DNA of 64,000 nt, taken from the NCBI RefSeq assembly GCF_003991155.1, contig NZ_CP031293.1; one strand, 5' to 3'. The notes beneath the pieces were generated by a model. The model did no database searches and had not been told where the DNA came from. It worked only from the letters and a program-made list of their open reading frames with translations. A program made the position numbers and the translations under genes. The stretch comes from Escherichia coli. GTDB taxonomy: Bacteria > Pseudomonadota > Gammaproteobacteria > Enterobacterales > Enterobacteriaceae. Below, piece by piece: positions 18,681-63,090 of this stretch; position 1 is the first letter of the stretch, and every line of letters starts with the position of its first letter.

Positions 18681-18949
18681 AACGCACTCCATACACCCCT
18701 CACTCTATATCACTCTCACAAATTCGCTCAAATAATAAACAATAAACTCTGTTTTTTGATCTCACCCGGTAAAGTCGCCTATCTTTTCAGCAACAAAACT
18801 TGATTAACATCAATTTTGGTATGACCAATGCACCATTCATGTTATTCTCAATAGCGAAGAACATTTTCATTGCTGTAACCTGTTGTTAATTAAGAGCTAT
18901 GTTAATAACCATTAATTAACAATTGGTTAATAAATTTAAGGGGGTCACG

Positions 18950-41196: not shown

Positions 41197-42657
41197 TTAT
41201 TCATCTTTCGGCGCAGAATGCTGGCGACCAAAAATCACCTCCATCCGCGCACCGCCCATCATGCTCTCTCCGGCGACGATTTTACCCTCATATTGCTCGG
41301 TGATTTCGCGGGCTACCGCCAGCCCCACACCTTGCCCAGGGCGTAAAGTATCAACCCGTTGACCACGGTCGAAAATGACCTCTCGCTTGCTTAATGGAAT
41401 ACCGGGGCCATCATCCTCGACCACAATATAGAGATGCTCGTCGGTTTGCCTTGCAGAAATTTCGACAAACTCGAGGCAATATTTACAGGCATTATCCAGC
41501 ACATTGCCCATCACCTCGACAAAATCGTTCTGCTCACCAACAAAGCTGATCTCTGGCGAAATATCGAGAGAGATATTGACCCCTTTGCGTTGATACACTT
41601 TGTTCAGCGCCGAGGTGAGATTGTCCAACAGTGGGGCGACCGGATGCAGCTCGCGGCTAAGCAATGTCCCGCCGCGCATACTGGCACGATGCAGGTAGTA
41701 GCCAATTTGCTGTGAAATGCGGCTGATTTGCTCCAGCATTACCGGCTCAGCATCACTGACGCTCATCTTCTCACTACGCAGAGAACGCAGCGTACTTTGC
41801 AGCACCGCCAGTGGCGTTTTCAGACTATGGGTCAGGTCGGTGAGCGTTGTACGATATTTGTCGTAACGTTCGCGTTCACTTTTTAACAATCGGTTCAGGT
41901 TTCGTACCAGACTGGTCAGTTCTCGCGTTGTGGCTGGATTGAGCAATTCGCGGTTATGTTCTTCCAGTTCGCGGACTTCTTTTGCCAGGGCTTCGATGGG
42001 GCGTAAACTCCACCAGGCGGCGACCCACAGCAGCGGGATCACTAACAGCAGATTGGCTGAGAGCACATAGATAAACCAGCTCCAGACCATATAGGAACTT
42101 TTTAGCTCCACCGGAATGGTATCCACCACCACAATGGTTAACTTTGGCATCCGCGATGTTGCCGGGTAGACGTTTACCGCCACCGAGTGGGTCATCTCCG
42201 CGTCGTCATCATCTTCCCGCACTTCCTGCAACTGTTGCTGTATCGAATGATCTCCACTCAGCAAGAGGCTGGTATCGTTAACATCCGCTTCAATTTCATG
42301 AAAACCATTCGATTTCAGCCAGTCAGGCTGGATCATCTTCATCAGCCAGGGCACGTCACGTTGCGCCCATAAAAGCTGCCCGTTCTCATCATAAATTAGC
42401 GTCATGGTGGGGCTTTGCTTGTCGATATTTTCGGGTAACTCGACATGCAACTTATTGTTTTCCCACTTCGCAAGGGTATAGAACAGATTGCTCTCGCCAC
42501 GTAACAGCCGAAACGTAGTTTTATCGAAACTGACGCTATAACCGATCAGCGCAACCATTCCGTAGGCAAGCGAAAGCACCAATACTACTGCTGCAGTTGC
42601 TAACAGAAAACGTACCCGCAGCGAGAGCGGGAAAAAAAGACGCAGTAATTTTTTCAT
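41197..42657 (-). CDS. phoQ: Sensor histidine kinase PhoQ
   Basis: 486-aa ORF with two transmembrane segments, periplasmic sensor domain, HAMP and HATPase domains. Confidence 0.95.
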
Positions 42658-43328
42658 CAGCGCAATTCGAACAGATAGCCCTGGCCGCGAACGGTGGTAA
42701 TCACTTCTTGCGGATATTGTGCCTGAATTTTTTTGCGCAGACGTCCCATCAGTACATCAATGGTATGGCTTTCCCGCAGCTCCGCATCCGGGTAGAGTTG
42801 TAGCATTAACGAATCTTTGCTGACCACTTTGCCATTATTGCGTATCAACGTTTCCATAATGGTGTATTCGAACGCGGTCAGTTTGATCACTTCGTCATTA
42901 ATAGATAATTCACGGCGGGAGAGATCAACCTGAAACGGTGGTAGCGAAATGACCTGTGAAGCCAGACCGCTATTACGCCGCATTAATGCCTGCATTCGCG
43001 CCATCACCTCTTCAATATGAAACGGTTTAGTCACGTAATCATCAGCACCGGCACTTAATACTTCGACTTTGTCCTGCCAGCTTTCACGGGCGGTTAATAC
43101 CAGAATCGGCAGTGAAACATCGTTGCTACGCCAGCGGCGAATCAGTGACAGACCGTCCTCGTCAGGCAATCCGAGATCGACAATCGCAATATCCGGTAAA
43201 TGTTCATTGAGATAATAATCGGCTTCTTTGGCATCTTCTGCGTCATCGACCTGATGACCAGCATCCTGAATCTGAACTTTAAGATGGTGACGTAACAACG
43301 CATTGTCTTCAACAACCAGTACGCGCAT
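42657..43328 (-). CDS. phoP: Response regulator PhoP (OmpR family)
   Basis: 223-aa [43 protein letters not shown]...; stop overlaps the phoQ start. Confidence 0.95.
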
Positions 43329-43387
43329 TTTTATTTCTCCCTGTCTTAATTATTAAAATAGTGTAACGCGATTATGTGGTTATGGGG

Positions 43388-43405
43388 GTAAACATTAAAT
43401 AAACC
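43388..43405 (-). promoter_or_regulatory. PhoP box (autoregulated phoPQ promoter)
   Basis: On the coding strand of phoP, about 60-80 nt upstream of its start: GGTTTA-TTTAA-TGTTTA, a direct hexamer repeat with 5-nt spacer matching the (T/G)GTTTA-N5-(T/G)GTTTA consensus. Confidence 0.6.
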
Positions 43406-43496
43406 AGCGGGGAGGGGAGGTAAAGTGAAAAAATAAAAAGTGGATAATCTTAATAAGCAGGCCGGACAGCATCGCCATCCGGCACTGTTTTGAGGC

Positions 43497-44870
<1,374 letters not shown>

Positions 44871-49356: not shown

Positions 49357-49680
49357 TTACTTGAGCCCATATGGGCATATTTTTATAATGCAACTATTAT
49401 GCAAACATTTATTTGTTATTTTGCTTTCTCCTGGAGGACACTCTTGACTGCTTTTGAGTAAACTCCATAAATCCTTGTTGAATGGTGCGATGTTATAAAT
49501 AGTAATAGGATATTCTTTATCCTTAAGGATAATACCATACTTAACCGGTGTAAATATACTTCCAGGAGGGAGAAATATAGTAGATTGATACCAGATGATC
49601 ATTTTCATATCACCCCATATGGCTGAAAAAGATATGCCGCATGTAGGTTGAATTACCGTGTCAATTACTATCCACTTCAT
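49357..49680 (-). CDS. iraM: Anti-adapter protein IraM (RssB inhibitor stabilising RpoS)
   Basis: 107-aa [26 protein letters not shown]... in an AT-rich segment; matches the remembered IraM sequence and size. Confidence 0.82.
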
Positions 49681-50382
49681 TTGTTATGTCTTATCCCACG
49701 GTGCTTAATATAATTCATTTGGATGTTCATTTCTTGATTTTGCATATGTGTATATTACTCCCAAAAAAATAAATTAATTAAAAATTAATGTCATTATCTA
49801 TATAAAACAAAATTTAAAGCAAGGAATCTCAATAGAGATTAAACAAAATGAGATTTAGTGAAAACATTAAATTATTCACTTCGTTTTAGATTTGTTTAGC
49901 TAAAATGTTATACATTCAAATGACTGAATATTCTGTAATTAAAACATAGCCTTTATGCTACTTTGAGCCAATTTGCTAAACATTATGGTTGGCCTTTTAA
50001 TATAACGATAATGATGAATATAAGCATGACCTGAGAATAAGGTTTCAATTTTTTAGTTATATAGGAATGGTTAAACCCGTTCCTGACTAAAATACATATA
50101 ATCGGATGATGACTAAACCAAAACACATGTGCGTTAAGTATTGAAACGGGCGTATGGCACGCCCGTTGGTTTTATAAATATGTTAACCGTTATAAAATAA
50201 CGTATAGAAAGTCAAGTGATCACATTTCAAATATCAAGTTGATAGTATTGATCTGGTGATTATTTATGGGTGGCAATAAAAAGACAGTATTACTCATCCA
50301 TATGAATAGTCTCTGCACTTTTATTTCCATTATGCTAATGCCTTACTGAATTATGAAGCATTTTTTAAGCATCCAACTTTAG

Positions 50383-51943: not shown

Positions 51944-53155
51944 TTATTTTTTCTCCGGCCACGCAACTGAAGGGATACCATTCAATTTAGCTTTCGCAAA
52001 CAGATCTCCCTGAAACATCTCAATTCCTGCAGATTCAAGCCACATCCACTCTTCTGGTGTTGTCACACCCATAGCAGAGACTTGAATTTCAAGTGATGTA
52101 CAGCATTTTATGATCGCTTGAATAATTGCCTGCCGTGGCCCGCTTTTATGAACATTGGTAATCAATTCCTGACTGATTTTAATTCTGTCAGGCTGGAAGC
52201 GTGACAGGAGTAACAAACCGGCAAAACCTGCGCCAAAATGATCAATTGCTACACTGATACCGGCAGCCTTAAGCGATTTAATCGCTTCTGCAAACTCATC
52301 AAACCGAGATATGACTTCACTTTCAGTAAATTCAACGATGATTTGTTCAGGCACCAGAGCATTGGCCTTTATTTCATCAAGTAAAAAAGAGACTGCGTCA
52401 GGTTCGTTAACCAGGGTCATAGGTAATAGATTGATTGAAATCATTTTATCACCGAGCTCAAGTGCGTGTGCCATCGCGAATGCAAGCGCCTTACTTTTGA
52501 GATCCGCTGTATAGATTTCCCCGTCTTTACGCTGCCCAACCGCTATAGCTGATGGGCTATCTTCATTTTTTTGCACAATGGCTTCAAAAGCGATTATCCG
52601 CCGCGATAAGGGATCGACAATAGGATGAAAGGCAAAGTGGTCGTTTATAGTTGGTGAAAGGGTACAGGAATCAAGTTCTTTATCAGATCCGTCAGCGATA
52701 AAAAGCCAGGAGTCTTCGGCAGGGATCTCGAAATAGGTTGCTTGTTCGGTTGCAAGGACAAAAGTACGAAAAAATTGCAGCGCTCTGTCATCATAAGTTA
52801 GCTGAAATTTTGATGTGCCTTTGTCGAATACGGCCTGTAAAACGTCATCTCGCTCGTGCAGGCGCAAATCAAATAATTCCATTCCCGCTTTGCCAAAACG
52901 GCGAGCAGGCGCGTAATCGCACATCAGCTCAACAATATTATAGTGCCGTGGATCCTGGCATATAGCCCGATATATCATTTTAACCTGTTCTTCCGGACCT
53001 TCCAGAAGCTGGAAAAAATGAGAACCATTAAACAGTAAGATCCCTGTTACGTCAGACTGCATGTTCCTGCGATTTGCTATCGAAACCATTTCTTCGATTT
53101 TTTTGACAGGTTCGTCGTCACGTATATGGCTACGATAAATAAGGGTGGTAAGCAT
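51944..53155 (-). CDS. bluF: Blue-light sensor BLUF-EAL protein BluF (YcgF)
   Basis: ORF trimmed to ATG (plus-strand cat 53153-53155): MLTTLIYRSHIRDD... (403 aa); N-terminal BLUF domain plus C-terminal EAL-like domain. Confidence 0.9.
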   Translation of the reverse strand: MLTTLIYRSHIRDDEPVKKIEEMVSIANRRNMQSDVTGILLFNGSHFFQLLEGPEEQVKMIYRAICQDPRHYNIVELMCDYAPARRFGKAGMELFDLRLHERDDVLQAVFDKGTSKFQLTYDDRALQFFRTFVLATEQATYFEIPAEDSWLFIADGSDKELDSCTLSPTINDHFAFHPIVDPLSRRIIAFEAIVQKNEDSPSAIAVGQRKDGEIYTADLKSKALAFAMAHALELGDKMISINLLPMTLVNEPDAVSFLLDEIKANALVPEQIIVEFTESEVISRFDEFAEAIKSLKAAGISVAIDHFGAGFAGLLLLSRFQPDRIKISQELITNVHKSGPRQAIIQAIIKCCTSLEIQVSAMGVTTPEEWMWLESAGIEMFQGDLFAKAKLNGIPSVAWPEKK

Positions 53156-61537: not shown

Positions 61538-62787
<1,250 letters not shown>

Positions 62788-63090
62788 TAGCCATGGTGCC
62801 GGTGTGGAATCCCCGTGGAACGCGGTGGCTGGTGCGAACTGGTCGTTCTGACCATCAACGATTAAACTGCGCTTCGGCGCAGTTTTCGTTTACAGGGTGT
62901 TAAAAGGGAAAATTCTGCGGCAAAAAAAGCCCGCCAGTTACGGCGGGAAACCTCATCCTATGGGAGAACAATGAATAATGAAATTGCGGGGTTATCATCT
63001 CCCAGTATACCAATACTAACAATAAGGTTATTTACTCAGCCAGGTATAAACATTTTGTTCTGTGTGGGGGGAACGGCATTAAGGTGTAAA

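Follow-up and report, generated by a model that had tools for sequence, protein, structure and literature searches.

The autoregulatory PhoP box of the phoPQ operon in a 64-kb stretch of an Escherichia coli genome

The phoPQ operon lies on the minus strand of the window, the term used here for the whole 64-kb stretch of Escherichia coli DNA that was analysed. With gene names transferred from the annotation of strain 2016C-3878, the window runs from lolE through potABCD, pepT, roxA, phoQ, phoP, purB, hflD, mnmA, nudJ and rluE, and onward from rluE through icd, iraM, ymgK, ymgL, ycgX, bluR and bluF to minE. A 401-nt stretch around the PhoP box described below was compared with complete E. coli genomes and found a match in 5,425 of 5,426, with 100% identity to several strains, 2016C-3878 among them. 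This last is the nearest match of the strain, which differs from K-12 in having no e14 prophage between icd and iraM. The order phoQ-phoP-purB is shared with K-12.

The phoP gene (42657..43328, minus) encodes a 223-aa response regulator of the OmpR/PhoB family, with a receiver domain (Response_reg), a winged-helix domain (Trans_reg_C) and the phospho-acceptor Asp51. Over residues 1-120 the protein matches 2PKX/2PL1, structures of the receiver domain of E. coli PhoP; in the PDB, PhoP is represented by this receiver domain only, and no PhoP-DNA or PhoP-RNA polymerase complex is available for the class II geometry discussed below. The gene for the sensor kinase, phoQ (41197..42657, minus), annotated as PhoQ, overlaps the phoP stop by one base within the same operon and is full length (486 aa). 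Both genes being intact, the regulatory architecture is therefore intact as well, as the original prediction had held.

Upstream of phoP, a spacer of 168 nt (40% G+C) leads to purB (43497..44867, minus), and this phoP-purB spacer is uninterrupted in 5,424 of 5,426 E. coli genomes. Directly after the purB stop stands a G+C-rich hairpin, terminator-like or REP-like (43461..43483, minus), at which the phoP regulatory region ends on its upstream side. In MG1655, RefSeq annotates no regulatory feature at the phoP upstream site.

Within this spacer, the phoP coding strand carries the direct repeat GGTTTA-tttaa-TGTTTA (43389..43405, minus), made of GGTTTA (43405..43400), the spacer tttaa (43399..43395) and TGTTTA (43394..43389). 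The minus strand here reads ...ccgctGGTTTAtttaaTGTTTAcccccataaccaCATAATcgcgttAcactattttaataattaagacaGGGAGaaataaaaATG, and the region, read on the phoP strand, is ccgctGGTTTAtttaaTGTTTAcccccataaccaCATAATcgcgttAcac...GGGAGaaataaaaATG. A fit of GGTTTA-N5-TGTTTA to the PhoP-box consensus had been claimed for the segment 43329-43420, and the repeat found inside it is an exact match, with 0 mismatches. It is the single exact match to KGTTTA-N5-KGTTTA on both strands of the 64-kb window, against 0.03 expected from dinucleotide shuffles, among which 3 of 100 gave any exact match. Sites with one mismatch to (T/G)GTTTA-N5-(T/G)GTTTA were searched for throughout the window and none was found.

A 19-column matrix was built from 37 DNase-footprinted Salmonella PhoP boxes taken from Zwir et al. 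2012 (PMC3335776, Table 1), from which the phoP site itself was left out in order to avoid circularity. Scanned with this matrix of Salmonella sites, the window yields the phoP box as its top-scoring position, at 14.6 bits and rank 1 of 127,964, so that the site does not fall below threshold. When the real sites are scored by leave-one-out, their median is 12.7 bits, which the phoP box exceeds, and it equals or surpasses 27 of the 37 individual scores, and the opposite strand of the 168-nt spacer shows no second site above 4.5 bits. The locus hence serves as a positive control, in which a reading made from sequence alone places a known 17-bp operator correctly and a matrix scan recovers it as the top site in 64 kb.

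The repeat is placed in a promoter context that matches the characterized one. The -10 hexamer CATAAT of promoter P1 (43371..43376, minus) is separated from the box by a gap of exactly 12 nt (43388..43377), with the same hexamer and spacing as in Salmonella phoP, so the claim that the box sits at the expected distance for a Mg2+-responsive promoter holds too. The proximal E. coli promoter P1 was described as PhoP-activated, with a 36-nt leader, by Coornaert et al. 2013 (PMC3536696). By arithmetic from that leader length, the P1 transcription start is placed at the A at 43364 (minus), 36 nt before the AUG at 43328 and 7 nt after CATAAT, which places the box at -41..-25, in overlap with the -35 position. 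The phoP 5' leader of 36 nt (43329..43364, minus) carries the Shine-Dalgarno sequence GGGAG at 43341..43337. The small RNA MicA is reported to pair with positions -15..+11 of the phoP mRNA, equivalent here to 43343..43318; a second small RNA, GcvB, also pairs within this translation-initiation region (PMC3536696). The distal constitutive promoter P2 could not be placed from sequence, conservation or a sigma-70 scan.

A PhoP box upstream of phoP is a textbook site that was already known, and its identification here is no discovery. The PhoP box of K-12 phoPQ P1 goes back to Kato, Tanabe and Utsumi (1999), as relayed by PMC5775216, PMC3335776 and PMC3536696, and it is the same element at the same locus, with no difference within the element and a 51-nt core 100% identical in K-12 C600 and the window. 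Of 5,426 complete E. coli genomes, about 4,050, with K-12 C600 and O157:H7 among them, carry this core (43362-43412) at 100% identity, and the others match it at 95% or better; owing to this identity within the species, the published K-12 work applies directly. According to the literature, P1 is induced in low Mg2+ in a PhoP-dependent manner, and P1 transcripts are lost in a phoP mutant.

The Salmonella phoP promoter consists of the box TGGTTTATTAACTGTTTAT, 12 nt, CATAAT, a +1 seven nt later and a 34-nt leader (PMC3335776), the footprint being attributed to Lejona 2003 as far as that paper cites it. Salmonella enterica and the window thus share the half-sites GGTTTA / TGTTTA, the 12-nt gap, the CATAAT hexamer and the +1 spacing, whereas the box spacer is TTAAC instead of TTTAA, the leader counts 34 instead of 36 nt, and flanking bases differ. 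In Shigella flexneri 2a, the 19-mer tGGTTTAtttaaTGTTTAc (PMC5775216, Table 5) is identical to the E. coli site. There, the phoP promoter fragment is shifted by PhoP-P in EMSA, a fragment-level result, phoP itself not having been footprinted, and a phoP-lacZ fusion is 7.2-fold phoPQ-dependent at 10 uM Mg2+ and induced by low Mg2+, acid and polymyxin (PMC5775216).

Among PhoP-activated promoters, architecture I designates those with one directly oriented box that lies 12 nt upstream of the -10 and overlaps the -35 position, and comprises mgtA, phoP, yrbL, slyB, pmrD as well as orgB (PMC3335776). This architecture is predicted to be class II, independence of the alpha-CTD having been demonstrated for mgtA (PMC3335776). 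With its single direct box, 12-nt gap and overlap with the -35, P1 in the window would belong to architecture I. The boxes of mgtA, yrbL and slyB share consensus, orientation and an 11-12-nt distance to the -10, but drive other genes; only the phoP box closes a feedback loop on the regulator itself.

To follow the element beyond E. coli, phoP loci were fetched from 80 other Enterobacteriaceae species. A direct box 57-69 nt before the AUG is kept in 58 of the 80, and a footprint was computed on 59 sequences, namely these 58 species and the window. The two half-sites reach 1.64 and 1.93 bits per position and the -10 reaches 1.54 bits, against 0.78 bits for the 5-nt spacer, which occurs in 23 different forms, and 0.47 bits for the 14 nt upstream of the box. 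CATAAT stands at 12 nt from the box in 49 of the 59 sequences, and some -10-like hexamer does so in 55. Conserved half-sites, a free spacer and a fixed -10 phase are the pattern predicted for selection on the site of a dimeric activator, and the comparison shows that the site is under constraint and not drifting neutrally.

Taken together, the repeat is almost certainly the autoregulatory PhoP box of the proximal, Mg2+-responsive phoPQ promoter P1. Sequence, uniqueness, geometry and conservation come from the window and its relatives, and the literature supplies the start site, the class II mechanism and the evidence that PhoP binds and that Mg2+ controls the promoter; no sequence evidence was found against this reading. 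Three alternatives are each given very little weight because the conservation pattern and the exact 12-nt phasing are decisive.

The one that survives best, and is still highly unlikely, would make the repeat mainly a PhoP-independent element, UP-like or a -35 substitute, for constitutive phoPQ transcription. A PhoP-independent phoP promoter, relatively stronger in high Mg2+, has indeed been reported in E. coli and Salmonella (PMC3335776), and the box contains a weak -35-like hexamer, TTTAAT (43394..43399, minus), which occupies the formal -35 position, 17 nt ahead of the -10, and matches TTGACA at 3 of 6 positions; its counterpart in the phoP promoter of Salmonella is TTAACT (Zwir 2012, Table 2). 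However, the constitutive promoter is the distal one, P1 being the proximal, PhoP-activated promoter. A generic sigma-70 promoter scan of 43250-43560 called no promoter, hence no stand-alone one here, which fits an activator-dependent promoter. Moreover, conservation tracks the PhoP hexamers and not the -35 register, the spacer positions that form most of TTTAAT being variable.

Even less probable is a site for another OmpR-family regulator (PmrA/BasR, PhoB or RstA) in place of PhoP. Regulators of this family recognise direct repeats with a periodicity of about one helical turn, so that a repeat of similar periodicity could in principle suit another member; yet both hexamers are exact to the PhoP consensus (T/G)GTTTA and unlike the PmrA half-site, which is CTTAAT-like, or the 7-nt CTGTCAT of the PhoB Pho-box, and the matrix derived from footprinted PhoP sites ranks the site first. 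As for a chance T-rich direct repeat with no regulatory role, the 40% G+C spacer does produce a score of at least 14.6 bits on the same strand in 41 of 5,000 dinucleotide shuffles (0.8%) of its A+T-rich 168 nt, and two-mismatch consensus sites are common (about 30-31 in the 64-kb window), but the rarity of an exact match, the precise geometry to the -10 and the EMSA and reporter data for the identical Shigella sequence all run against it, and the conservation of half-sites across genera around a varying spacer effectively refutes it.

For the autoregulatory PhoP box, the following sequence of events is proposed. When periplasmic Mg2+ is low, or in response to acid pH, antimicrobial peptides or an osmotic upshift, PhoQ would become active and phosphorylate PhoP on Asp51. 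A PhoP-P dimer would then bind head-to-tail, one winged-helix domain per hexamer, the hexamers being 11 bp apart and therefore on one face of the helix. With the box (-41..-25) standing in for a proper -35, PhoP-P would recruit sigma-70 RNA polymerase to CATAAT as a class II activator, and transcription from about 43364 would produce the 36-nt leader followed by phoP-phoQ. The additional PhoP and PhoQ would close a positive feedback loop, with the distal PhoP-independent P2 supplying a basal level and the sRNAs MicA and GcvB repressing translation at the leader. At this particular box, we infer the substitution of PhoP-P for the -35 contact, the start near 43364 and the positive loop. The phoPQ feedback loop sets the strength and speed of the enterobacterial response to low Mg2+, acid pH and antimicrobial peptides, and the intact box of this strain implies normal autoregulation.

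The same arrangement is interrupted in a number of relatives. No box is found at the canonical place in 16 of the 80 species, and in 15 of these 16 the cause is a mobile-element insertion and not drift; autoregulation through this site is therefore not universal. Integrase-bearing elements are inserted in the phoP P1 core of Citrobacter, Enterobacter, Lelliottia and Kluyvera. In the 15 species, the phoP AUG is preceded, at about 70 nt, by the end of a 429-aa tyrosine integrase (Arm-DNA-bind_2 and Phage_integrase domains) or of its remnant (loci L007, L011, L016, L017, L019, L020, L023, L028, L030, L032, L039, L040, L049, L052 and L069, with further element loci L089-L092 and L098-L100). In Citrobacter, this integrase forms the int end of a lambdoid prophage that resembles Rac and carries xis, RecE/RecT, a CI-like repressor, YdaS/YdaT, terminase and lysis genes. 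Enterobacter hormaechei, E. cloacae and E. quasihormaechei retain no more than a fragment of the integrase, beside an IraM-like ORF. A search for a sequenced phage with a matching attP returned distant integrase similarity only.

Junctions were compared between an empty site (L008), a phoP-side junction (L017) and purB-side junctions from viral contigs (L098-L100); the far prophage junction was found by a pattern scan of viral contigs, a walk along a metagenome contig having stopped short of the prophage end. The common att core, CCACATAATCAGCGTTAAACTAT, runs from the -10 hexamer of P1 across the start site to the first bases of the transcript (about +10), and E. coli differs from it at a few positions (ACCACATAATCGCGTTACACTAT). 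The purB-side junction keeps the PhoP box with its 12-nt gap, followed by a copy of the core, and this arrangement faces into the element, where the next genes are co-oriented in L099 and converge on the junction in L098. At the other junction, phoPQ receives from the element a TTCATA, spaced 17 nt from CATAAT, which would serve as its -35. The junction structure shows that these elements use the P1 core as their attachment site and separate phoPQ from its PhoP box. We consider it possible, with the balance somewhat against it, that lysogeny uncouples phoPQ from positive autoregulation and puts element DNA under PhoP control.

Across genera, the first transcribed phoP bases (43365-43350 in the window; L002-L081) are more conserved than the 12-nt gap. 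They read CAGCGTTAAACTATT in most genera and CGCGTTACACTATT in the window, and coincide with the element attachment core.

Several other positions of the window resemble PhoP sites. The second-best match to the matrix, TCGTTTACAGGGTGTTAAA (14.5 bits, 62886-62904), falls in the intergenic region that separates minE from an IS3 copy. Also in this region, 170 nt apart, is the sRNA isrC (Rfam, 145 bits; 62597-62719, minus), beside the IS3 copy and autotransporter remnants near minE. When a canonical-submotif matrix was used, the top match was TCGTTTATAGTTGGTGAAA (17.0 bits, 52641-52659, plus), inside the bluF coding sequence and about 830 nt upstream of ycgZ. A further match, at 18915-18933, is a near-palindrome just upstream of ndh. 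With no supporting context, these three probably match by chance and were not retained as PhoP sites.

The upstream region of iraM (49357-49680, minus) was scanned as well. In Shigella, iraM (ycgW) depends strongly on PhoPQ for its expression (0.09 in the mutant), and in E. coli the gene shows an induction of about 20-fold that acts through PhoQ. Our literature search found no published definition of its PhoP site, which Bougdour 2008 or Eguchi 2011 may give. The original prediction had reported no clean box readable there and had proposed a matrix scan; the former stands, no exact or one-mismatch site being present, and the scan added two candidates with two mismatches. These belong to the three two-mismatch sites of the iraM-ymgK spacer (49681-49938; 258 nt, 23% G+C). 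The candidate direct site, TGTTTA-atctc-TATTGA (49845..49829, minus), scores 13.0 bits with 2 mismatches and is followed after exactly 12 nt by TAAATT, a putative -10 (49816..49811, minus). The candidate reverse site, CGTTTT-agatt-TGTTTA (49882..49898, plus), scores 14.4 bits and lies 36 nt upstream of the direct one.

By analogy with architecture II, in which a direct box 12 nt from the -10 is accompanied by an upstream reverse box (e.g. ybjX), iraM may carry an unrecognised two-box PhoP promoter of similar design. Singly, the site scores are weak because the region is so A+T-rich: the scores of the direct and reverse candidates are reached by 12% and 3.6% of local shuffles, respectively, and both together by 0.3%. 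The two candidates are retained in K-12 and three divergent strains; with the window this makes five sequences at 93% identity, a level at which retention is suggestive only. Among the five, variation in the direct site is confined to the spacer and to the opening base of the second hexamer (TATTGA/CATTGA), and TAAATT and the 12-nt gap are invariant. The segment 49681-49920 upstream of iraM is itself polymorphic, with matches at the megablast level in 2,543 of 5,426 E. coli genomes, most at 90-95% identity; the remaining genomes presumably carry the iraL allele or nothing (PMC4045071).

The IraM-like ORF of the element-bearing loci is divergent (26% identity to IraM) and lies between purB and phoP (L030:636-1025, minus; also in L028 and L049). 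No Pfam family matches either this ORF or IraM. The ORF has a C-terminal CP(F/Y)GLK motif, and a strong PhoP-box-like site precedes it (CCGTTTATGAACGGTTGAA in L030).
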